Source: Escherichia phage Mt1B1_P17
Sequence record: NC_052662.1
Strand: one strand, 5' to 3'
DNA length: 64,000 bases
Shown: positions 8,742 through 48,190 of the stretch, piece after piece
How the letters are laid out: each line of letters begins with the position of its first letter
Position numbering within the stretch: position 1 is the stretch's first letter
The notes under the pieces: generated by a model
Told to the model about the DNA's origin: nothing
Database searches by the model: none
What the model saw: the letters and a program-made list of their open reading frames with translations, nothing else
Made by a program: the position numbers and the translations under genes

Positions 8742-8954
8742 TTATGAAATAATCGTCAAAGTAAAATTGTAATCACCTGATTGGTACAATACTTTATCAC
8801 CGAAAGTTCCAACACGTTTAACATTGCAATATATACCCATAACACTTTTTACATCTTTGATATTCTTCACGCCTGTAATATCTTTATTAAAATGATCGTG
8901 ATCAGAAAATAAAACTTGACTTGCATTTTTTAACAGTGTACGGATATTAGCCAT
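8742..8954 (-). CDS. hypothetical early protein (70 aa)
   Basis: ORF; TTGACA-N16-TAAACT promoter and 5' hairpin upstream. Confidence 0.45.
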   Translation of the reverse strand: MANIRTLLKNASQVLFSDHDHFNKDITGVKNIKDVKSVMGIYCNVKRVGTFGDKVLYQSGDYNFTLTIIS

Positions 8955-18654: not shown

Positions 18655-19011
18655 TTAGCTCCAAAGATTATCAAAATAACTAGCGAATAAAAGACGGCCC
18701 TCTAATCGTGCCTTCCTTTGATCTTCAGCATACACGATTTCTGGATTACCACTATCAATAAAAGCATTCTCCATCTTTTCTAAAATATTTAACCACTCTC
18801 TTCTACCTGTCTCCTCTTCTTCATCTGTATACGGCGCACTTCTATTTGGATACAAAACACGCATCAGTTTAGTGGGGATCATGACAAACGTGCTATTGTT
18901 TGCCTTCTCACGGAAGGCTTTAATTCCTGCATAGATTACCTTCCCCAAAGCTGCATCCAAATCCATCAGGTCACTTTCTTCTATTTGAATTTCATCGTGT
19001 ACAATTTTCAT
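18655..19011 (-). CDS. hypothetical protein (118 aa)
   Basis: ORF; RBS GGGAGAAGG. Confidence 0.45.
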   Translation of the reverse strand: MKIVHDEIQIEESDLMDLDAALGKVIYAGIKAFREKANNSTFVMIPTKLMRVLYPNRSAPYTDEEEETGRREWLNILEKMENAFIDSGNPEIVYAEDQRKARLEGRLLFASYFDNLWS

Positions 19012-30437: not shown

Positions 30438-30461
30438 AAAGGCGCACTTTGCGCCTTTTTT
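30438..30461 (+). terminator. intrinsic terminator AAAGGCGC-ACTTT-GCGCCTTT plus T6
   Basis: Perfect stem followed by TTTTTT. Confidence 0.6.
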
Positions 30462-32827: not shown

Positions 32828-33019
32828 ATGGTTACATATTTTGCTGTAGGAGATAGAGTAGGGACGGCAGGAGAACTTTTGAAGAACAGTGATCGGGACG
32901 TTAAGGACATTCTTGCAACCCTTGTGGATATTTTACAAAGAAAAGAGTTGCTTTCTGATCGAGATGTTGCTAAATTACTTGATATCGGAGGAGATGAACT
33001 TCAAAGACTTCCATTTTAA
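32828..33019 (+). CDS. hypothetical small protein, about 63 aa
   Basis: Internal Met with RBS AGGAGG. Confidence 0.4.
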   Translation: MVTYFAVGDRVGTAGELLKNSDRDVKDILATLVDILQRKELLSDRDVAKLLDIGGDELQRLPF

Positions 33020-33034
33020 GTGAGGAGATAAGTA

Positions 33035-33640
33035 ATGCAACATAGTGTAGTAGTCAACATGCCGAATAGTGGGGATAAATCTTTTGGTGTCCCTGCTAAA
33101 AAAGTGTGGAAAGCCCATTTTCATCTTACTTTATCTAACGTTAGTTCTGAAGAGTTGATGAAAGCAGCTAAGATTATTGGTGCCAAATGCACAACAATTG
33201 ATTTACATCGGGATACAAAGTCTCAACGTGATCGTATGTTAACAAAGTATCAAAGCGATCTCGACACTACTTTAATGTTGCAGTGTGTAGAAAAACTTGA
33301 GAATGCAGGTTTCAATGTTGTTCGTTACAAACTGGAACGAATGTTTAAACATGTTGCCTGTGTTCTTTTCATGGATCTAAGTAAAGAAAATTACGGAGAA
33401 GTTCACATTAAGACTTCAGCAAGTGATCCCGAAGTAGAAACAAACTTCTTCCGTATTTCTTCTAATGCTGAAGAAATTGATTACCGATTTTATAATGCTC
33501 GCTTATATTCCGCAGAAGATAAGTTGCGTTTCAATGAAGCGTATGATATGCTCTTGAACAGTGGGATACAGATAAAAGGCTACCACATAGAACAAGTGGT
33601 AGTGGACAGTAATCTTAACTTAGACGCATGGTGGGCTTAA
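33035..33640 (+). CDS. hypothetical protein (201 aa)
   Basis: ORF; RBS GAGGAG. Confidence 0.5.
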   Translation: MQHSVVVNMPNSGDKSFGVPAKKVWKAHFHLTLSNVSSEELMKAAKIIGAKCTTIDLHRDTKSQRDRMLTKYQSDLDTTLMLQCVEKLENAGFNVVRYKLERMFKHVACVLFMDLSKENYGEVHIKTSASDPEVETNFFRISSNAEEIDYRFYNARLYSAEDKLRFNEAYDMLLNSGIQIKGYHIEQVVVDSNLNLDAWWA

Positions 33641-33641
33641 T

Positions 33642-34298
33642 ATGACTATTAAACATATCTCTTTTGATGTATGGAACACACTGATCACAGCAAACTCCAA
33701 TTACGCAGACATGCGAGCCTGGACTATCGCAAAATATGGAGATATTACGGAAGTGGAAGCAAGAGCAGCTTATAAAAAGATCAAAAAGGAACTGGATAAT
33801 GCAGCACTTCAAGGCAAAGCCGAGTGTGCAGCATACGCCTGGGAAAGACTTGGTTCTGAACTTGGGATAACGCCTTGGAAGTCTGCAAAGCTTCGTTTCG
33901 AGTGTGAACAGTGGTTCCTTAAGTTTCCACCACACGTAGCCGTGGATCTGCCGATGTACTTGCTGTATCTTTCAGGGCGTTATGATTTGAGTATTAAGAG
34001 CAATACCAACTTCATATCAGGGGATATCCTGCGTCGTGCTTGTAAGTTTGATAGTTGGAATTGTTTTGAGTTCACCCATTTCTCGGATGAAGCTTTACTT
34101 TGTAAACCAGATCCGCGATTCTTTGCTCGCACGCTCACGTATTCTCCGATCCCTCTGTTAGGGCACGAAGTGTTGCACGTAGGCGATAGTGAAGAATATG
34201 ATGGAAAATGTGTTGACTTAGGATTTAACTTCTGTCATATTAAGAACCCTAACGACTTACTAGAGAAACTTAAAAGAGGAGAAATTGTAAATGCGTAA
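33642..34298 (+). CDS. HAD-superfamily hydrolase/phosphatase-like protein
   Basis: HAD motifs I FDVWNTL, II IKSNTN, III KPDPRFF, IV VGDSEEYD in correct order. Confidence 0.55.
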   Translation: MTIKHISFDVWNTLITANSNYADMRAWTIAKYGDITEVEARAAYKKIKKELDNAALQGKAECAAYAWERLGSELGITPWKSAKLRFECEQWFLKFPPHVAVDLPMYLLYLSGRYDLSIKSNTNFISGDILRRACKFDSWNCFEFTHFSDEALLCKPDPRFFARTLTYSPIPLLGHEVLHVGDSEEYDGKCVDLGFNFCHIKNPNDLLEKLKRGEIVNA

Positions 34299-35118
34299 TC
34301 AAACTCAAATTTTTGCAAATAAATTTGATGACCTGGAAACTGCTACTTTTGATATCCAAGATTATTCAAAATTAAAATTTGGTAGTAACCAAGCTGCGCG
34401 TCGTATGGGTAAAGAATTAGCACTTCAGTTTTTTGCTCAAGTGGCAATGAAACATATTGGGGAACAATTTGTTATCATTCCTTCTCCTTATAACCATGTG
34501 CATAATGCTGCAACAATGATGACAGATCATTTTATTAATTATTTTAATATGTTGCAATCACAATATGATCAAGGTCGTTCAGCAGAACTGGACATTATTC
34601 ATCGTAAAGTTAGCTATATCAACGATTATGGTTTCTTGGATAAAGCTAGTCGTAAGAAACTTATTGATGGGGATACATTCTACTGCAACAAAGAATTCTG
34701 GGGTGATAAGAAGCTTGTATTCATTGATGATGTAAATATCACTGGAACGCATGAAGACAAACTGATTGAGATCCTTGATGAAAATCAAGTTAAAAATGAT
34801 GTTTACTTCTTGTATTTTGCAAAATACGAAGGTAATCAAGCAGATACCGAAGCTAAACTGAATTTTAACTACATTAATACACCAGAAGCGTTTGTTAAAA
34901 TGATTAATGAAGAACGTGATGCACAGTGTCTTGTTCGTCCTATTAAGTATCTTATGGGCCAAAATCATGAAGACTTCAAAATCATTCTTAGCCAATTGCC
35001 ACATTACTATGTAGAGCAACTTTTCTTTGGATGTTTGGGAGAAGGTTACAACCGAATTTCAAAGTATGCTGAAAACTTTGAATTCTTGGATCGTTACACA
35101 AAACAACACATTCTGTAA
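34291..35118 (+). CDS. phosphoribosyltransferase (type I PRTase) domain protein
   Basis: PRPP-binding motif KLVFIDDVNITGTHED. Confidence 0.5.
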   Translation: MRNQTQIFANKFDDLETATFDIQDYSKLKFGSNQAARRMGKELALQFFAQVAMKHIGEQFVIIPSPYNHVHNAATMMTDHFINYFNMLQSQYDQGRSAELDIIHRKVSYINDYGFLDKASRKKLIDGDTFYCNKEFWGDKKLVFIDDVNITGTHEDKLIEILDENQVKNDVYFLYFAKYEGNQADTEAKLNFNYINTPEAFVKMINEERDAQCLVRPIKYLMGQNHEDFKIILSQLPHYYVEQLFFGCLGEGYNRISKYAENFEFLDRYTKQHIL

Positions 35119-35132
35119 TAAGGAGCTAAAAA

Positions 35133-35606
35133 ATGCTTAAAATGAAAAGAGGTAATCTTATTGATGCCGCTAAAGCAGGTGAAGTAACTGTTATTGCTCA
35201 TTGTTGCAACTGTATGTGTAATATGGGGGCAGGTATTGCCCCACAAATCAAACAAGCATTTCCTTACGCATATGCAGCAGACTTAGACACAATGGCTGGT
35301 GATCAAAGTAAACTAGGTTGTTTTAGTTTAGGGGTGCCAGACGAACAATCAGACCCTTTGGTATATAATCTATACGGGCAATACCGTTACGGATACAATG
35401 CTAAAGGTCGTCAGTTGGACTATGATGCACTTTACGATGCACTAATAGCTATGGCTAACGATTTGCTTCTCCGTGACCAAAAATGTAAGATCGGCTTACC
35501 TATGATTGGCGCTGGATATGCTGGAGGTAATTGGGCTATCATCCAAGTGATGATTGAAGAAACTTTAGTAAAAACAGGTCACGATGTGACTATTTATAAA
35601 CTTTAA
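35133..35606 (+). CDS. macro domain (ADP-ribose-binding/hydrolase-like) protein
   Basis: N-terminal VIAHCCN...GAGIA and C-terminal GLPMIGAGYAGG resemble macro-domain glycine-rich motifs. Confidence 0.55.
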   Translation: MLKMKRGNLIDAAKAGEVTVIAHCCNCMCNMGAGIAPQIKQAFPYAYAADLDTMAGDQSKLGCFSLGVPDEQSDPLVYNLYGQYRYGYNAKGRQLDYDALYDALIAMANDLLLRDQKCKIGLPMIGAGYAGGNWAIIQVMIEETLVKTGHDVTIYKL

Positions 35607-35618
35607 GAGGAGATTAGT

Positions 35619-35840
35619 ATGGGTGTTTTTGCAGGTATTGTTGCAGTGGTAAGCTTTTTTGTTATTGCTTTTATGCTTAGTTTGATTCCAGCTTGGTTAC
35701 TGTTGCTGGCTTACAACTATGTTGCTGAAGTTATGGGTCATGCAGATATCACTGTCCCAGTAACCTTCTGGACCGTGGTTTGTGTTTCGTTTATTCTGGC
35801 TGTATTACGAGGAATCTTTTCCTCTCATTCAACAAAATAA
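35619..35840 (+). CDS. small membrane protein (two hydrophobic helices)
   Basis: ORF; RBS AGAGGAG. Confidence 0.45.
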   Translation: MGVFAGIVAVVSFFVIAFMLSLIPAWLLLLAYNYVAEVMGHADITVPVTFWTVVCVSFILAVLRGIFSSHSTK

Positions 35841-35843
35841 GTG

Positions 35844-35902
35844 TTGACATAGTTCTTAAAAAGAGTAAGATATATCACATGAAGCGGGGAATAGTTCCCC
35901 GC
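35844..35902 (+). promoter_or_regulatory. early-type promoter cassette on plus strand: TTGACA-N16-TAAGAT plus 5' stem-loop GCGGGGAATAGTTCCCCGC
   Basis: -35 at 35844..35849, -10 at 35866..35871, hairpin 35884..35902; same architecture as the minus-strand early cassettes. Confidence 0.6.
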
Positions 35903-35919
35903 AAAGAGAGGAGAAAAGA

Positions 35920-36894
35920 ATGCAACTTGGTTTCCCAATTATTGATGTAGTTGTTTTAGTTGGTATTTTAGCATTGTCTATTGGTATTGATTTCTTTGGT
36001 CACAAAGAAAATAAAGAAATTTCATTCAAATCCGCAGTTGGTTGGTCGATCTTTTGGATTGGTGTATCATTAGCTTATTATGGTTTTGTATACTTCCAAC
36101 ATGGTGCCGATTTTGCTAACTTGTTTTTAAGTGGATATGTGTTGGAAAAATCTTTGTCGGTAGATAACTTAGTAGTATTTGTAGCAGTATTCGCAAGTTT
36201 TGGTATTAAAAGCACACACTTGCAGCACAAGATTCTACTTTGGGGTATTGCAGGTGCGATTGTCTTCCGAGGTGTGTTTGTAGCAGTAGGCACTTACTTG
36301 TTAAGTTTGGGCTGGTATGTTAATATCTTCTTCGGTGCGGTCATCCTTTTCTGTGCAGCTAAAATGGTATTTGCTGGAGATAATGACGCAGAAGTTGATT
36401 ACTCTAAACACTGGGCTACCCGTATTGTTCGTAAACTGTTCCCTGTATCTAATAAAATGGATGGGGAGAAGTTCTTCACAATCGAAAATGGTGTTCGTGT
36501 AGCAACTCCAGCTTTGGTTTGCGTATTCGTGATGGAAATGGTTGATGTAATCTTTGCAGTAGATTCTGTTCCGGCAGTGATCGCAGTAACACAAGAACCT
36601 CTGCTTGTATTCTCTTCGATGTTATGTGCAATCTTAGGTCTACGTGCTCTGTTCTTTGTTCTTAGTGTTGCACTGAAGTATCTGGTTCACTTGGAGAAAG
36701 CAGTTATTGTGGTTCTGGTGTTTGTAGGTGTTAAACTGATGTATCACCCGTTTGCAGAAACGTTACATGAAAAAATGAGCTTCCTGCCAGCGCACATTGA
36801 TCCAACTATTAGTATGTATATTGTCCTGGGCACATTAGCTCTTGGTGTTATTGCAAGCTTTATCTTCCCTGAAAAAGAAGAAGCTACTGTTTAA
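35920..36894 (+). CDS. terC: TerC-family integral membrane protein
   Basis: Multiple hydrophobic helices and the TerC-type motif LEKSLSVDNLVVF. Confidence 0.6.
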   Translation: MQLGFPIIDVVVLVGILALSIGIDFFGHKENKEISFKSAVGWSIFWIGVSLAYYGFVYFQHGADFANLFLSGYVLEKSLSVDNLVVFVAVFASFGIKSTHLQHKILLWGIAGAIVFRGVFVAVGTYLLSLGWYVNIFFGAVILFCAAKMVFAGDNDAEVDYSKHWATRIVRKLFPVSNKMDGEKFFTIENGVRVATPALVCVFVMEMVDVIFAVDSVPAVIAVTQEPLLVFSSMLCAILGLRALFFVLSVALKYLVHLEKAVIVVLVFVGVKLMYHPFAETLHEKMSFLPAHIDPTISMYIVLGTLALGVIASFIFPEKEEATV

Positions 36895-36900
36895 TAAATG

Positions 36901-36925
36901 AGCCTCCTTCGGGAGGCTATTTTAT
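36901..36925 (+). terminator. intrinsic terminator AGCCTCC-TTCG-GGAGGCT plus T-rich tail
   Basis: Perfect 7-bp stem followed by ATTTTAT. Confidence 0.55.
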
Positions 36926-36936
36926 AGGAGAGACTT

Positions 36937-37287
36937 ATGAGTAATTTTGATGAAATTCAAGAACTTGTTTGGGATTTATCTGGTGATGTGGATTACATTT
37001 CAGATTATCTTTCAAAAGTTTACCCTGGGGTAAGCGTTATGATTGTGACCAAAGATCCAATTAATTTGCCTCCTAATGTTGTAGCTTGTTGTGGAAGTGG
37101 TTCAGGAGAAGTAGAGCCTGTATCTCGTTGGGAATTAACTAAAGCTGTTTCAAAACGAAGCGGTGAAGTTTTGAATATTGATATTGAGCAAATATGGACT
37201 TCTCCAGCAGCCAAATGGAATGATCCAAATGGTTGGGATTTGTTCTTCTGGGATAATGAGACTGATGATGAGGTGTTTTTAAAATGA
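36937..37287 (+). CDS. hypothetical acidic protein (116 aa)
   Basis: ORF; RBS AGGAGAG. Confidence 0.5.
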   Translation: MSNFDEIQELVWDLSGDVDYISDYLSKVYPGVSVMIVTKDPINLPPNVVACCGSGSGEVEPVSRWELTKAVSKRSGEVLNIDIEQIWTSPAAKWNDPNGWDLFFWDNETDDEVFLK

Positions 37288-38519: not shown

Positions 38520-39110
38520 ATGCATACCGAGAGAGACTTGCAACTCTTGTGGTGGGAAGTGATGCAGGAAATAAAAGAAGATTTTCCTGTTTACTACAAC
38601 ATGTTACGTGAAGCAGGATATAAAGCTTGTGTTAGAAACAAAGTGAATAACTCTTTCGGTTGGTGCAACTACCGAGATAAAATTGTTGTTGTAAATTGGC
38701 ACTTGCATAAGAACTCCACAAGAGATATGATCGTGGATACAATGAAGCACGAAATTGCTCATGCTATTGATGGTTGTATGGGTAAGTTTAGTAGACACGG
38801 TGCTCATTGGCAAAAACTGGCAGCAGAGTTAGGGGCTAATCCTAAAGCCACTTCCAAAGAGCCGTTGAACCACGAATATAAATATGTTCTTGTTCTGGTA
38901 GATAGGTTTGCGACAAGATGTGTTAGAGGTTATAATCGTAAACCTAATCGCATGTACCCAGGTAAGCAACCTAATATGTGGTTGAAATCAGATAAAGAAG
39001 GGACCGAAGGAAAATTATGGTTGTATAAATGGGACGATTGGGTTAAAGTAGCTAAAGAGTACGGTGTTTCACCATATATAAGAGATGCAGAAGAGGAGAA
39101 TGAAGAATGA
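38520..39110 (+). CDS. putative zinc metallopeptidase (HExxH; SprT-like)
   Basis: MKHEIAHAIDG motif with downstream His. Confidence 0.45.
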   Translation: MHTERDLQLLWWEVMQEIKEDFPVYYNMLREAGYKACVRNKVNNSFGWCNYRDKIVVVNWHLHKNSTRDMIVDTMKHEIAHAIDGCMGKFSRHGAHWQKLAAELGANPKATSKEPLNHEYKYVLVLVDRFATRCVRGYNRKPNRMYPGKQPNMWLKSDKEGTEGKLWLYKWDDWVKVAKEYGVSPYIRDAEEENEE

Positions 39111-40219
39111 CAAGTCCATTTTTAAAAGCAGCTACTGGCGGTCAGAAGAAGCCTGAAATGAGCGTATTTGCTGCAACAACAGATGCAAGTAAATCTGTAT
39201 TCGCTCCAAGCGTGTTAGATGCCAGTCCTGTTTATGCACCAGCGGCACCGCAAGAAGTTCCAGTTTTGCCTTCTATGACCCGACAAGAGATCGAAGAGAT
39301 TGGGGCAGAGGCAGGAACAACCTTGCGTTCCTTGAATGCCGAGGTGTTAAAACATCAACGTAGTAATCAAGGCGATCAGATGAGTGAACGACTCACAGCT
39401 TTGATTAAACAGGCAAAACAACTTGATCCAAACTCTATTAAACAAAGCAAAGGTATTACTAAACTCATTAAAAAAGTTATGGGTATGAAAGAAGACCTGT
39501 TCGGGGAGTTTGATAATGTTAATAACCGTATTGAAGAGTTGGTAAAGAACCTTCAAATGGATATTCGCAAAGAAGAAGATTCCTTGGTATATCTTGAAAA
39601 GCTACATCAAGCTATTGGACAATATGCTGCAAGTTTGAACCGAGATATGCAGCTTCTAACAGCAACCTATGAAAAAGAAGAACAAGCTTTGGCTGCTCTT
39701 CCAGAAGATGCAGTAGAACAGCGACAAGTGATCCGAGATACTTTGGATCTCTTGGAGATTCGTATTGCAGATTTAAAAGCATTGCGCCTACTGTGTGTCC
39801 AAATGGGACCGCGTGTACAAGGTATGCAAAAAGTTTCTGCAAGCTTAATGCGATCTGCGCGTAACATAGTAAATAATGTTATTCCTGCTTACTCTGCTAA
39901 CTTCTCAATGTATATCGAGAGCTTACGTCAAATGAAAGCAGCAGAGACGCAGAATAACGTTCTTGATGAATTTAACCTGGCAATTAAACTGGGTAGCGAT
40001 CTTGCCACACAGAATCAGATCGAAGCAGCAGCACTGGCTAACCGTCAAGTGTTGGATATTGAAACTCTGCGTCACGATCAGGAAAACTTGGTTAAGATGT
40101 TGGAAGAAACTAACCGCATCAATACGGAAGCCCGTGCTGCTCGTGTTGATTATATTAATGAAGTTCAATCTCTGGAAGACGGGATGGTAGCTGCTGTGAA
40201 ACGAGGGCTTGGTAAATGA
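39107..40219 (+). CDS. long alpha-helical/coiled-coil protein; possibly TelA-like (unverified)
   Basis: 370 aa, helical heptad-like composition; TelA suggested only by size and Ter-gene context. Confidence 0.4.
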   Translation: MTSPFLKAATGGQKKPEMSVFAATTDASKSVFAPSVLDASPVYAPAAPQEVPVLPSMTRQEIEEIGAEAGTTLRSLNAEVLKHQRSNQGDQMSERLTALIKQAKQLDPNSIKQSKGITKLIKKVMGMKEDLFGEFDNVNNRIEELVKNLQMDIRKEEDSLVYLEKLHQAIGQYAASLNRDMQLLTATYEKEEQALAALPEDAVEQRQVIRDTLDLLEIRIADLKALRLLCVQMGPRVQGMQKVSASLMRSARNIVNNVIPAYSANFSMYIESLRQMKAAETQNNVLDEFNLAIKLGSDLATQNQIEAAALANRQVLDIETLRHDQENLVKMLEETNRINTEARAARVDYINEVQSLEDGMVAAVKRGLGK

Positions 40220-41815: not shown

Positions 41816-42610
41816 ATGTCCGAGAAAATCAGCCTGAAAAAACGTCAAGAAAACCTTGCTTTCTCTCTGAAAAAGAATAAGAACCTGAATGAAGGTAAGA
41901 TTGTTCTTCGTGTAGCATGTGCTCTAGATATTTCTGGTAGTATGCATGGTCTATATTCTAGTGGGGTAGTGAGTGATTTTGTAGGTAAACTGCTTCCTTT
42001 TGGTATGCTGTTCGACGATAATCAACAAATTGATATGTGGGCCTTCAATACGAGTTCCCAAGAGCTTACTCCAGCAACAGCAGACGTTTACGATGACTAT
42101 GTTGGTAAATGTATGCGTAATGTTCGTATCGGAGGTGGAACAAATTACGCCCCTGTAATGGCAGATATCTACGATGAGTATTTTGGCACTGTTACCAAAT
42201 ATATTACCACTAAACAAGTGGTACAAGAGGAGGCTCCAAAGAAAGGCTTCTTTAATCGTCTGCTTGGTAAAACTGAAACAGTGTCTGTAGAGCGTGAAAA
42301 AGTTGTAGCTGTATCTGAACCAGGTGCTGACGTTACCCCTGGTGTTGTATTCTTCCAGACGGATGGTGAGAATGGTGATCCTAGTGCTGTTCGTCGTCTT
42401 ATTGAAGAGAATAAGAATAAACCTATTTATTGGTTCATGGTTGGCGTTGGTAATGAGAAGTTTGGGTTCCTGAAAGAACTGGCAAATGCTTATGATAATG
42501 TTGGTTTTATTGGCATTAAAGATTTAGACTTGACAGATTCAGAGCTTTATGACAAACTCTTATCTGAAGAGTTCGGAGAGTGGGTTGTTAAAGTAGGTGC
42601 TAAAAAATGA
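41816..42610 (+). CDS. vWA-domain protein (TerY-like) with TerD-like N-terminal leader
   Basis: MIDAS motif ALDISGSM; N-terminal SEKISLKK repeats the TerD N-terminus of CDS 43121..43723. Confidence 0.55.
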   Translation: MSEKISLKKRQENLAFSLKKNKNLNEGKIVLRVACALDISGSMHGLYSSGVVSDFVGKLLPFGMLFDDNQQIDMWAFNTSSQELTPATADVYDDYVGKCMRNVRIGGGTNYAPVMADIYDEYFGTVTKYITTKQVVQEEAPKKGFFNRLLGKTETVSVEREKVVAVSEPGADVTPGVVFFQTDGENGDPSAVRRLIEENKNKPIYWFMVGVGNEKFGFLKELANAYDNVGFIGIKDLDLTDSELYDKLLSEEFGEWVVKVGAKK

Positions 42611-43120: not shown

Positions 43121-43723
43121 ATGACTGATAAAATTTCCCTGAAAAAAGGCTCTAGCGAAAAAATTTCCCTGAAGAAAGTTGCTCCGGCTCTGAAAGAACT
43201 GCGCCTGGAATTCTCTTGGAAATCTGATTCTAAACTGGATCTGGATGTAAGTGCACTGGTTTGTCGTCACAATGCCGCTGGTAATCCTGAAATGCTGTCT
43301 GCACGTCATCTGGTTTGCTATGCTAACAAGTTTGATCCTGAACGTTCTACCTTCGCTGGTGACGATGTTCGTGATGGAACTGGCAGCATGGAGCAGATTG
43401 ATATTACTCTGGCTAAAATCTCTCCTGATGCACAAGAGATTGCCTTTGTTCTGACCATTGATGATGATACAGGTCTGAAACGTTTTGGTCATGCTTCTGA
43501 AGGTATGCTTAAAATCTTCGACTCCGAGCGCAATGTGGAAATTCTGGATTTTGACTTCCTGGCTCCTGAAGTAGCTGGCAACACAATCTGCCACGTGGCT
43601 TCCTTGGTTCGTGAAGATGGGGAATGGAAGCTGAAAGCATATGGTGTAGGTAAAGCTGGTCTGGATATTTGTGATGTGGTGATGGCCTTCGGTGGTAAAA
43701 AAGAATGGTATGAATGTCCATAA
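43121..43723 (+). CDS. terD: TerD-family protein
   Basis: N-terminal KISLKKGSSEKISLKK repeat, LDLDVSAL, acidic D-rich loops and GEWKLKAYG, matching the TerD pattern from memory. Confidence 0.75.
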   Translation: MTDKISLKKGSSEKISLKKVAPALKELRLEFSWKSDSKLDLDVSALVCRHNAAGNPEMLSARHLVCYANKFDPERSTFAGDDVRDGTGSMEQIDITLAKISPDAQEIAFVLTIDDDTGLKRFGHASEGMLKIFDSERNVEILDFDFLAPEVAGNTICHVASLVREDGEWKLKAYGVGKAGLDICDVVMAFGGKKEWYECP

Positions 43724-45045: not shown

Positions 45046-45609
45046 ATGATTTATTATATTACTCCCTATCTGACAGGAAATATCGGCAAGGCTATCAATA
45101 AAGCCATTGCCGTTCTTCCAGATGATAGTTGGGTGTGTTTAAGAGATACCGATACAATGTTCCTCCTACCTGATCAACCATCTATGCTTGAAGAGCTTGT
45201 TATGTCAAACCCGCCTTTTGATGTAATAGGTGCAACTTGTAACAGGTTAGGCAGTGGTTATCAGCTTTTCTCTAACCAAATTAACGATGATCCAGATATT
45301 CTAAACCATATAGAATATGCTAAGATTGCAAGAGAATATCATAAAGTGAGTGTTGAAGAAGTTCCTTTCGGAACACCTCTGGCAGGTTTCTTCTTGCTTT
45401 TTAGAAAATCATTGTGGAATGAAATTCCTTTCGAAGAAAAATCTATCCAATTCGACTTAATTTTCTCTCGCACTTTACATGAAAAAGGAAAGAGGTTAGG
45501 ATTGATGCGGGGAATGTATCTGTTTCACATTTACAGATTAGGTCAAATAAATCCTCAACGGTCTATACATCATTTATTACACTGTCATGATCACAGTAAA
45601 ACTATTTAG
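45046..45609 (+). CDS. possible GT-A-like glycosyltransferase
   Basis: LPDDSWVCLRDTDTMF resembles a DxD nucleotide-sugar motif; tentative. Confidence 0.35.
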   Translation: MIYYITPYLTGNIGKAINKAIAVLPDDSWVCLRDTDTMFLLPDQPSMLEELVMSNPPFDVIGATCNRLGSGYQLFSNQINDDPDILNHIEYAKIAREYHKVSVEEVPFGTPLAGFFLLFRKSLWNEIPFEEKSIQFDLIFSRTLHEKGKRLGLMRGMYLFHIYRLGQINPQRSIHHLLHCHDHSKTI

Positions 45610-45617
45610 GAGAGAAA

Positions 45618-46301
45618 ATGGAAAATATTAAAATTGGAGTGGGTGTTATCACTGTAGGTGTCCGTCCACTTAAAGACTACCTTGTAACAGATCCACGTGC
45701 AGATTTTCGAGTATTCAACGATCCAGATCGTAAAGGTGTAGCTTATGCCAGGAATGAACTTATGCACCAGTTTTATGAAGAAGGTTATGATTATTGGTTT
45801 ATTTTTGACGACGATTGCTACCCAGTCATGGAGGGATGGGAAACATACTTTGTAGATCAAGCTGTCTCTGGAGGATGGGATTTCTTTGGTATGCCGGAGT
45901 ATTTCAAAGATAAAGTTGTTGGAAGCAAAGGAGAAGTTATTCTCTGGGAACTTGCAATGTGTCAATTTGCAATGTATTCTCGTGCCGTTGTTGAGAAGAT
46001 GGGTTATTTCCGTCCTTACACTCACGGCTATGGTTTTGAAGATGCTGAATGGGGACACCGTTTGCAAGCTGCTGGTTTGAATCATGGTATTCAGGCAACA
46101 CCTTGTCCACTTCGTATCATGGCTTATATCCACCCAGACGATGTTTTTGGAAACAACCCTATGCCTTTTGCTAATCTGACAAAAGAAGAGAAAGAAGCTG
46201 CTATCGGGATTAACTGGGAAGAATATAAAGCATCTTTAGAGGATATTAAAAATGGGAAAATCCGAATTTCCTATGAGGAGGCACTGGCACATGTCAAATA
46301 A
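45618..46301 (+). CDS. GT-A-fold glycosyltransferase-like protein
   Basis: DYWFIFDDDCYP (DxD) and GYGFEDAEWGHRL motifs. Confidence 0.45.
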   Translation: MENIKIGVGVITVGVRPLKDYLVTDPRADFRVFNDPDRKGVAYARNELMHQFYEEGYDYWFIFDDDCYPVMEGWETYFVDQAVSGGWDFFGMPEYFKDKVVGSKGEVILWELAMCQFAMYSRAVVEKMGYFRPYTHGYGFEDAEWGHRLQAAGLNHGIQATPCPLRIMAYIHPDDVFGNNPMPFANLTKEEKEAAIGINWEEYKASLEDIKNGKIRISYEEALAHVK

Positions 46302-47238
46302 AAAATGGTCTAAACTAAAAATTGATGCAAAACCTCATAGCGGTTGTGACTATCATCGTATTGTTATGCCATTTAACAACAATAATTTTCAACCTAAGAA
46401 AGATATTGTTGTGTTTAACCGTATCCACTCTAAAGGTGCAGAATACGTTTTATCTTTGAAACGTCAAGGTGTTAAGGTTGTTGTAGATTTAGATGATTTT
46501 TACCAACTTAATCCAGAGCATTATTTAGCAAGTCTATACGAGTCAAACACTCATGCTATTGTAGCTATGGTTAAGCTTGCTGATGTGGTTATTGTGACTA
46601 CAGAATATTTGGCATATAAGATCCGTCACTTAAATAGAAATGTCGTTGTGATCCGAAATGCACTTCCTTTTGATAGCGGACAATTCACTTTGTCAAATGA
46701 TCGTTCATCCGGTACCCCTGTTGTATGGGCTGGCGGTGCTAGTCACGAACCAGATTTACGACTAGTCTCTAATACTTTCGATGATGAACTTCTTACTATT
46801 GCGGGATATGAAGCATCACAAAGCATCACGGGACAAGAGTGGATTAAGATTCGCAGAAATTTACCAAATGCCAAATATAAAGCTGCTGTAAAAGATTTAG
46901 ATAATTACATGAGTGTTTACGAAAGTCATGCTATTGCTATAGCTCCTTTGGTAGACAATGATTTTAATAATTGTAAAAGTAATCTCAAAATCCTGGAAGC
47001 TGGAGCAAAAGGTATTCCGATTGTTTGTTCTAAGGTATTACCTTATTTTAACCCTGTAGATGCTCGCGCTGTTGCTTACGCAGAGAATAAAGCAGAATGG
47101 CATTACGAAATTGTTAAGCTTCTTCGCAATCCAAACTATCGGGAAGATCGTGGCTTGTTCTTGGCTGAACATGTTCGAACACATTATAATCTGGCAGATG
47201 CAAACGAGTTGCGACGCCAGGTTATTGAAAGTTTGTAG
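46291..47238 (+). CDS. GT-B-fold glycosyltransferase-like protein, paralogue 1
   Basis: C-terminal NCKSNLKILEAGAKGIPIVCS resembles the GT-B donor-binding helix; paralogue of 47246..48190. Confidence 0.5.
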   Translation: MSNKKWSKLKIDAKPHSGCDYHRIVMPFNNNNFQPKKDIVVFNRIHSKGAEYVLSLKRQGVKVVVDLDDFYQLNPEHYLASLYESNTHAIVAMVKLADVVIVTTEYLAYKIRHLNRNVVVIRNALPFDSGQFTLSNDRSSGTPVVWAGGASHEPDLRLVSNTFDDELLTIAGYEASQSITGQEWIKIRRNLPNAKYKAAVKDLDNYMSVYESHAIAIAPLVDNDFNNCKSNLKILEAGAKGIPIVCSKVLPYFNPVDARAVAYAENKAEWHYEIVKLLRNPNYREDRGLFLAEHVRTHYNLADANELRRQVIESL

Positions 47239-47245
47239 GTGAAGT

Positions 47246-48190
47246 ATGGGACAAATAATTCTTGACAATCGTAACGGAATCAATTATAGTGTCTGCGATT
47301 TCCATAGGGTAGTGCTGCCTTACTCAAGGCAGTTCTCTTCACAACCTAAATACAACGTTTTCGTTTTTAACGGAGTGCCAACAAAAGGTAAAGAGGGCTT
47401 TTTAGCCCTTAAAAACCTAGGCTTTAAAATGGTTATGGATTTGGATGACTCTTTAGTTATTCCAAAAGGACACATGTTAGAAGGTATTTTTGAATCAGGT
47501 ATTCGTGAACATTTAAAATGGTTTTTAGAGCACAGTGATCTTGTTACAACTACGACACCTGCCTTGCAAGTTGAACTTTCACAATACAATGATAATGTGC
47601 ACATAATCCCTAATGGACTTCCTTATGATGAAGGTCAATTTGTGTTGACCCGTGATCGCTACTCCAAAACTCCATTAGTCTGGGCTGGAAGTGAAACACA
47701 TAAACAAGATTTGGCTATCTTGCCCGATTTTGGTAAAGATCTTACAATATGTGGTTTTCGTAGGGATTCTGAAGTTTTAAGTAGTCGTGAATGGTCTGTA
47801 ATCAGAGAAAATGTAGCACCAACTTGTGTTTATGAAGGTGTAAGACCATATGCCAACTACATGGAATCTTACGATGGTCATCAAATCAGTCTTGCGCCAT
47901 TGATTGATAACGTGTTTAATAATGCAAAAAGCAATCTTAAAATTCTTGAGGCAGGTGCTAAGGGTTTACCTTTGATCTGTTCTCCTCGTGAGAATTATCA
48001 TACACAAGAGTTTAAAGATTTGTTATTCTTTGCTGAAACACCTTCCGAGTGGAAAGATATTACGGAATACTTATTAAGTGCTCCCGATGTTTGCATGGAG
48101 AAAGGATTAGCATTAGCTAAGTATGTCAGGACTCATTATCACATTGATGTGTTGAATGAGCGTCGTAGACTTTTATTTGAGGAGCTATAA
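47246..48190 (+). CDS. GT-B-fold glycosyltransferase-like protein, paralogue 2
   Basis: NAKSNLKILEAGAKGLPLICS; collinear similarity with 46291..47238. Confidence 0.5.
   Translation: MGQIILDNRNGINYSVCDFHRVVLPYSRQFSSQPKYNVFVFNGVPTKGKEGFLALKNLGFKMVMDLDDSLVIPKGHMLEGIFESGIREHLKWFLEHSDLVTTTTPALQVELSQYNDNVHIIPNGLPYDEGQFVLTRDRYSKTPLVWAGSETHKQDLAILPDFGKDLTICGFRRDSEVLSSREWSVIRENVAPTCVYEGVRPYANYMESYDGHQISLAPLIDNVFNNAKSNLKILEAGAKGLPLICSPRENYHTQEFKDLLFFAETPSEWKDITEYLLSAPDVCMEKGLALAKYVRTHYHIDVLNERRRLLFEEL

Follow-up and report, generated by a model that had tools for sequence, protein, structure and literature searches.

Ter systems, widespread among pathogens, are tied to resistance to tellurite, colicins and phages. 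To our knowledge, the 'nucleoside-like' product predicted for them has not been identified so far; the biosynthetic module for such a metabolite is said to go back to Anantharaman, Iyer and Aravind in 2012. In the model of Iyer et al. 2021 (PMC7824862), a phosphoribosyltransferase (PRTase) and a haloacid dehalogenase (HAD) family enzyme form a 'signal biosynthesis' module for bacterial and phage Ter systems alike, and the module is described in phage-borne systems, e.g. that of Acinetobacter phage vB_AbaM_ME3. Here, we analyzed the same module in Escherichia phage Mt1B1_P17 (NC_052662.1), in a stretch of 64,000 nucleotides that we refer to as the window, where the genes for a HAD hydrolase, a PRTase and a macrodomain protein follow one another. 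The initial annotation, made from the sequence alone, had joined all three in a nucleotide- or ADP-ribose-derived small-molecule pathway, with NAD+ salvage as an alternative. We find instead that the HAD and PRTase genes are a module of their own, to which we give slightly better than an even chance of being the two-step biosynthetic arm of a phage Ter system, with the macrodomain gene as a separate counter-defence gene. That the two enzymes are of the classes linked to Ter loci, as the initial annotation pointed out, agrees with the published module. The Ter-linked PRTase and HAD arrangement is as such not new, and many GenBank records already carry annotations of these genes; added to the Ter model here are the strictness of the coupling, the fusions of the two domains and an unusual HAD motif, and the genomic premises of the model are supported.

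By running hidden Markov models of the window and locus proteins over all open reading frames (ORFs) of 46 sources, made up of the window, a single phage record with annotation, and loci taken from IMG/VR, from GTDB genomes and from metagenome assemblies, we found the HAD gene directly upstream of the PRTase gene (family PRTase_3, see below) in 45. The one that departs from this (L040) is a PRTase copy with a frameshift, the second on a Rhizobium plasmid where an intact pair (L036) is found too. Dereplicated at 70% identity, the sources fall into 23 lineages, in all of which the two genes adjoin, and the HAD gene is directly upstream also of PRTase homologs that are only 45–55% identical, on phage contigs of 140–350 kb. 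Out of the 50,697 records of the GenBank phage collection, searched by tblastn, 155 contained the PRTase and 155 the HAD, with identical genus counts for both (Escherichia 103, Rhizobium 11, Klebsiella 10, Brevundimonas 7, Campylobacter 5, Caulobacter 4) and adjacent coordinates in every record cross-checked. All co-occurrence figures rest on the 46 sources plus these record counts. A search of 1.84 billion cluster representatives returned only 492 PRTase relatives; among the 150 representatives listed, at least 17 are fusions of about 490–545 amino acids (aa), HAD being N-terminal and PRTase_3 C-terminal, which is strong evidence that the two domains act on consecutive steps. HAD and PRTase_3 are an obligate pair, i.e. 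one module. The expectation that the adjacency would be conserved in relatives has held for this pair (23 of 23 lineages) and failed for the macrodomain gene, which adjoins it in only two lineages, both from Stephanstirmvirinae. Other domain layouts among the cluster representatives were PRTase-HAD-PRTase_3 in P0265 (841 aa) and tandem PRTase_3 with a second PRTase domain in P0336 and P0345 (538–550 aa), and these echo the paired PRTase_3 genes of the Pedococcus ter cluster described below.

In the window, TerC, TerD, TelA and a von Willebrand factor A (vWA) protein resembling TerF are all encoded in the same neighborhood as the pair. Of the 23 lineages, 13 have one or more of these four genes within 10 kb of it, which is a lower bound, as several loci run off contig ends. 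Two unrelated large contigs have the pair interleaved with Ter genes, in the order TelA-vWA-...-TerC-HAD-PRTase-TerD. TerD follows PRTase at a distance of 29–39 nt in L002 and L006, L021 has the order TelA-HAD-PRTase, L019 has HAD-PRTase-vWA-TerC-TerD, and the Pedococcus chromosome (L045) has TelA-TerD-TerD-TerC-vWA-TerD-HAD-PRTase_3-PRTase_3. On Bacteroidales-type contigs, TerY (vWA+TerY_C), a PP2C phosphatase and a protein kinase are encoded directly upstream of the pair; downstream are a P-type cation ATPase gene and a tandem of three TerD genes. These contigs, binned in metagenome-assembled genomes (MAGs), may be mis-binned jumbo-phage DNA, a hazard that the Jug-phage paper warns of in reporting TerD plus Ca-ATPase in gut 'Jug' jumbo phages; some of our 'bacterial' contigs may be phage. 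TerD itself occurs in 144 GenBank phage records, from the same genera as the pair except Rhizobium, and BASEL phage JohannJBalmer is among the matches. No PADLOC model matched the HAD, PRTase, TerD, TelA or vWA proteins. Neither ATP-grasp and CitE-like lyase genes nor additional PRTases (PRTase_1/2) are annotated in the record of phage SKA64 over the part corresponding to window positions 19,000–51,000, and none was found among the window ORFs scanned, a set that took in part of the small ORFs.

The PRTase matches Pfam family PRTase_3 (PF15610) over profile positions 9–264 of 264 (E=2e-41, 142.5 bits against a cutoff of 28.7). Its sequence had no matches in PDB, and the classification came from a fold search: the AlphaFold model (pLDDT, i.e. 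predicted local distance difference test, 93.8) had its best Foldseek matches to HGPRT, H. pylori ComF and PyrR, all of them type I PRTases. The similarity is confined to the core, with template modeling (TM) scores of 0.35–0.46, and a family-specific C-terminal helical domain at about aa 186–275 has no structural match. The class proposed in the initial annotation is thereby confirmed; the protein is a type I PRTase, and PRPP-dependent (5-phosphoribosyl-1-pyrophosphate-dependent) transferase activity is predicted from its sequence and model. The PRPP-binding motif, VFIDDVNITGTHED, is found at aa 143–156, with the loop D146-D147-V-N-I-T151-G152-T153. In an alignment of 91 PRTase_3 sequences, with a mean column identity of 53%, the loop residues D146, D147, T151, G152 and T153 are invariant or nearly so, H154 and E155 are invariant, and a further invariant loop, HRKVSYxxDYGF, is located at aa 104–115. 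In a loop modeled with lower confidence, the stretch K-V-S-Y is presumably akin to K-S-Y in the flexible catalytic loop of HGPRT. Annotation in GenBank as 'putative orotate phosphoribosyltransferase' is unsupported; Pfam and NCBIfam gave no match to OPRT (orotate PRTase), HGPRT or other salvage families, and a ComF-type zinc finger was not detected by the Pfam scan.

Every motif quoted for the HAD protein in the initial annotation is present, i.e. FDVWNTL (aa 8–14), IKSNTN (118–123), KPDPRFF (155–161) and VGDSEEYD (180–187). The set is however not a full one, since motif I reads D9-V-W11-N-T13 and the Asp+2 general acid/base position thus holds a Trp. Of the family members aligned at motif I, fusions included, all have this D-x-W-x-T pattern except a single one with Tyr, and the nucleophile D9 is invariant. 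Motifs II (S120), III (K155) and IV (the Mg2+ ligands of GDxxxD, G181-D182...D187) are intact and conserved. In established HAD enzymology, motif IV favors phosphoryl-transfer chemistry, and dehalogenases are without it. As Asp+2 is lost, the usual phosphatase mechanism cannot be assumed. Membership of the HAD class, also proposed initially, is upheld by NCBIfam HAD-IA matches (DREG-2, YjjG and CTE7, all weak and far under the family cutoffs), by PDB entry 2om6, which aligns end to end and has the identical FDVWNTL motif, and by more distant homologs that exceed the Pfam Hydrolase cutoff of 26.4 bits, under which the window protein stays at 21.2 bits. We know of no characterized enzyme that shares the D-x-W-x-T motif, and no substrate can therefore be transferred to this HAD. 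Within Phapecoctavirus, GenBank records contain two HAD alleles, about 99–100% and about 77% identical to that of the window, in phages whose PRTase is at least 98% identical (e.g. Schickermooser and vB_EcoM_3A1_SA_NWU), a split that suggests allelic replacement of HAD alone.

The macrodomain scores only marginally against Pfam Macro (22.3 bits, cutoff 22), and the class given in the initial annotation is backed by PDB macrodomains, namely SCO6735 (5e3b, E=2.5e-12), Thermus aquaticus DarG (5m31, 1.7e-6), human TARG1 (3e-6) and BT1257, as well as by the PADLOC DarG model (E=6e-10). Its glycine motifs are NMGAGIA (aa 30–36) and IGAGYAGG (aa 125–132), and on sequence grounds it belongs to the Poa1p/TARG1/DarG/SCO6735 class. 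The catalytic Lys (TARG1 K84, DarG K80) is replaced by Gln81 and the TARG1 D125 position by the Ala of GYAGG, replacements that are also found in SCO6735, BT1257 and T4 Tk.4. Besides the two lineages in which it adjoins the pair, the macrodomain gene was found 6–8 kb away in two more, and it is absent from the other 19 of the 23 neighborhoods. With 2,921 phage records, the family is about 19 times as common as the pair; it is present in T4-like phages (gene tk.4), Vequintavirinae and many others, and the closest relatives outside Stephanstirmvirinae (48–50% identity) stand alone amid unrelated small genes. A 143-aa ORF upstream of HAD in the jumbo-phage contig L002 was considered as a macrodomain and turned out not to be one. 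The macrodomain is not part of the conserved HAD-PRTase module and is a separate gene; the three-gene pathway of the initial annotation fails on its distribution and on its homologs in counter-defence.

These homologs are of two kinds. T4 Tk.4, with 34% identity (E=7e-21), protects T4 from DarTG2 according to genetic evidence in the HIDEN-SEQ preprint (10.1101/2025.11.20.689424), where it was named AdfM and its mechanism was inferred rather than demonstrated. The macrodomain located between Adps and Namat in Vibrio phage VPG01 is 40% identical to ours; in the preprint of Osterman et al. (10.64898/2026.01.28.702374), the NARP1-AP macrodomain Adpp turns ADP-ribose (ADPR)-1''-phosphate into ADPR and defeats aRES defence. 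By tblastn with VPG01 Adps and Namat, no match was found in the window or in the 148 kb of Phapecoctavirus 536P1, which is 95–99% identical to the window. A role in feeding NARP1 is therefore unlikely here, and NAD+ reconstitution of the NARP1 type was rejected for this phage; NARP3, a PnuC/NadR system, has no relation to them. By analogy, the macrodomain is most likely an orphan ADP-ribose-processing enzyme of the Tk.4/AdfM-Adpp family that would counter host ADP-ribosylation or NAD-cleavage defences. The NAD+ salvage alternative is thus unsupported for the PRTase, with its type I fold and no Adps or Namat found in the window or in 536P1, while a counter-defence role centered on ADPR and NAD is plausible for the macrodomain alone.

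In the mechanism that we propose for the pair, PRTase_3 would join a nucleophile, probably base-like, to PRPP, giving a ribotide from which the HAD partner would remove or transfer the phosphate to yield a riboside-type small molecule. The pair would then form the biosynthetic arm, in minimal form, of a Ter system that the phage carries and that includes TerC/Alx, TelA, vWA-TerF-like and TerD proteins, and the product of the pair would be a ligand or signal, probably for TerD-type sensors working with TerC, TelA and vWA proteins at the membrane. The phage may deploy this system during infection, e.g. in superinfection exclusion or in the management of ion or envelope stress.

Several observations weigh against this proposal. 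The substrate and product of the pair are predictions from sequence, a literature search on the PRTase_3 family found no biochemical work, and to call the HAD a phosphatase is an assumption in view of its missing Asp+2 general acid/base, Mg-binding motif IV being kept. The association with Ter genes that the initial annotation looked for was borne out in the 13 lineages above, but 8 of the 23 have no detectable Ter gene within 10 kb of the pair. Among these cases are Rhizobiaceae and Rhizobium phages, and two T4-like/jumbo contigs without nearby Ter genes have the pair beside a vWA-like DUF2828/DUF7788 gene. As the pair also occurs without Ter genes, its function is not strictly Ter-dependent. 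As for the macrodomain, it lacks the catalytic Lys and Asp of TARG1 and DarG, and it shares an array with the pair, 14 nt from PRTase, so there may be functional interplay in this lineage.

The operon of Rhizobiaceae, chromosomal or on plasmids, consists of a 151-aa gene, HAD, PRTase_3 and a ClpP-like peptidase (positions 8834–11591 of L035, Sinorhizobium terangae, and 11 other loci), and these loci have a related small gene family in common with the phage contigs L016 and L017. On the two DUF2828/DUF7788 contigs (L004, 10967–12562; L007, 7152–8555), the pair is within about 1.5 kb of the DUF2828/DUF7788 protein, with RNA ligase genes a few kb off, and L004 also has a weak 2H-SAK match. This hints that the constant partner of the pair may be a vWA-type protein.

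The absence of Ter genes in several lineages also fits another explanation, which we regard as unlikely, i.e. that the pair acts as a metabolic effector. In a futile cycle that leads from base and PRPP to nucleotide and on to nucleoside and Pi, it would drain the PRPP or nucleobase pool and so bring host metabolism, or replication of a superinfecting phage, to a halt, like PRTase-type defence effectors. Effectors with PRTase domains that upset purine metabolism are known from defence, namely ShosT (PMC11961720) and the Retron-Eco11 effector, and the strict coupling of PRTase and phosphatase, with the fusions, fits this cycle as well as it fits a biosynthetic route. However, a lytic phage with nrdDG directly upstream itself relies on nucleotide pools, a sensed product would better account for the conserved interleaving with ligand-binding TerD, and neither HAD nor PRTase was matched by any PADLOC defence model.

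That the trio is a single ADP-ribose/NAD pathway against NAD-depleting defences seems to us quite improbable. The PRTase would in that case rebuild a pyridine- or ADPR-derived nucleotide, the macrodomain would dephosphorylate ADPR-1''-phosphate like Adpp, and the HAD would trim a phosphate. The likeness to the VPG01 macrodomain, encoded in the layout of NARP1-AP, whose own macrodomain is an ADPR-1P phosphatase, speaks for such a pathway, as does the close spacing of macrodomain and PRTase in one array. Against it, besides Adps and Namat being found neither in the window nor in 536P1, PRTase_3 is a type I PRTase, whereas VPG01 Namat is annotated as a nicotinamide phosphoribosyltransferase; the macrodomain is absent near the pair in 19 of 23 lineages, and the pair tracks Ter genes instead. 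Furthermore, a phosphatase fused tightly to a PRTase would undo nucleotide salvage. We likewise give little credence to a variant of the biosynthetic proposal in which Stephanstirmvirinae recruited the macrodomain to the pair, the trio making or processing an ADP-ribose-like or ribose-1''-phosphate-bearing riboside messenger for TerD, TerC, TelA and vWA proteins; if true, this would mean phage-encoded small-molecule signaling in phage-phage or phage-host conflict, with unusual HAD chemistry in which Trp replaces the general acid. Ordinary nucleotide salvage or pool sanitizing in a phage replication module is very unlikely: the pair does follow nrdD and nrdG within one co-directional array, GenBank annotations say orotate PRTase and the best structural matches are purine salvage PRTases, but no OPRT, HGPRT or other salvage family was matched in Pfam or NCBIfam, the structural similarity ends with the core fold, and the other lineages examined have Ter genes or DUF2828 as neighbors.

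The three ORFs are co-directional and have exactly the positions given in Table 1, as in the initial annotation, and with hundreds of homologs per protein chance is ruled far out. Window region 33000–37000 is 99.6% identical to Escherichia phage vB_EcoM_ESCO37 and 92–99% identical to dozens of other Phapecoctavirus genomes (phAPEC8-like, Stephanstirmvirinae; about 150 kb). The record of phage SKA64 has the same gene order as the window, i.e. nrdD, nrdG, two hypothetical genes, 'REG-2-like HAD hydrolase', 'phosphoribosyltransferase family protein', 'putative phosphatase (Macro_Poa1p_like)', TerC-family membrane protein, several hypotheticals, SprT-like, TelA, small genes, vWA-TerF-like, TerD and SleB, then four glycosyltransferases. 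Strong bidirectional terminator-like hairpins at 30438–30458 and 36901–36918, with stems of 9 and 7 bp and T tracts on both strands, bracket one co-directional array, nrdD-nrdG-orf-unk201-HAD-PRTase-macro-TM-TerC, as judged by a consensus scan only. A promoter scan of the window was at chance level (42 found, 39 expected), and neither Rfam families nor tRNAs were found anywhere in it.

Table 1. Positions of the genes and signals discussed, in the window unless a contig is named.
Feature	Position	Strand	Length	Remarks
Conserved protein	33035..33640	+	201 aa	stop codon 1 nt ahead of HAD start
HAD-superfamily (subfamily IA-like) hydrolase	33642..34298	+	218 aa	
Type I PRTase, Pfam PF15610 (PRTase_3, 'ComF-like')	34291..35118	+	275 aa	8-nt overlap with HAD gene
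Stand-alone macrodomain	35133..35606	+	157 aa	14 nt from PRTase gene
Predicted membrane protein	35619..35840	+	73 aa	between macrodomain gene and TerC; Stephanstirmvirinae-specific
TerC/Alx-family integral membrane protein	35920..36894	+	324 aa	TIGR03718, 319 bits against cutoff 246
Terminator-like GC-rich hairpin	36901..36918	.		directly after TerC; consensus scan only
TelA-like protein	39107..40219	+	370 aa	annotated in SKA64
vWA-TerF-like protein	41816..42610	+	264 aa	annotated in SKA64
TerD-family protein	43121..43723	+	200 aa	annotated in SKA64
Bacteroidales MAG loci with TerY-PP2C-kinase, pair, ATPase, three TerD	L043 5130-13489; L041 4528-10765; L038 809-7230			

The conserved 201-aa protein encoded directly upstream of HAD matched PADLOC 'AbiEi' models near full length (E=5e-13), and 5 of 25 homologs had a weak Pfam DUF559 match. 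H28-x-H30-x-T32 and E122-x-H124-x-K126 are invariant in it, and a fold search yielded generic ferredoxin-like matches only. It is confined to Phapecoctavirus and close relatives, is probably not part of the HAD-PRTase module, and may be another orphan antitoxin-like or nuclease-fold gene near the macrodomain gene. A SprT-like metalloprotease gene (38520–40219 together with TelA) overlaps the TelA start by 4 nt, which suggests translational coupling; it was found beside TelA in Phapecoctavirus-type loci only. Downstream of TerD and SleB, at 45046–48190, four consecutive glycosyltransferase genes (GT2-like and GT1 wbuB-like according to the SKA64 record) may play a role in DNA or surface glycan modification.

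Specific to this locus are the minimal two-enzyme version of the module in tractable E. coli phages and a neighboring macrodomain gene that probably serves counter-defence independently. One PRTase and one HAD, sometimes fused, would be the Ter biosynthetic arm in its smallest form. As E. coli phages are easily handled and phAPEC8/phi92 relatives are present in common collections, the product and target of the system are experimentally approachable. A likely mis-association is also removed, as the macrodomain is better regarded as the product of a candidate gene against DarT2 or aRES.

Compared with the known Ter biosynthetic module, the window has the same combination of PRTase_3 and a HAD-fold hydrolase, the same partners (TerC, TerD, TelA and a TerF-type vWA protein) and, by prediction, the same role in synthesizing a signal or ligand. 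It differs from the large bacterial Ter clusters in being minimal, with one PRTase and one HAD, and its Ter genes do not make up a compact operon but lie scattered, over about 10 kb, between phage-specific ORFs. At the level of the single enzymes, the PRTase shares the type I core fold and the PRPP loop with ComFC (PDB 7p0h) and the purine salvage enzyme HGPRT, but is only 11–15% identical to them, at the TM scores given above, and PRTase_3 has its own N-terminal segment and C-terminal helical domain. The HAD has FDVWNTL, with Trp at Asp+2, and the HAD-IA architecture in common with PH0253 (PDB 2om6) and the REG-2-like and HAD-IA 'variant' hydrolases, and differs in falling under all curated family cutoffs. 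T4 Tk.4/AdfM is, like the window macrodomain, a stand-alone protein of about 155 aa with Gln at the catalytic Lys position and a similar score against the macrodomain region of PADLOC DarG; at 34% identity, an anti-DarT2 role for the latter would be one by homology. Lastly, Adpp of NARP1-AP belongs to the same Poa1p-like macrodomain family but works in a setting with Adps and Namat, which were not found in the window or in 536P1, and the VPG01 macrodomain that ties the two together is a layout match to the studied operon of phage Gary, not the studied protein itself.

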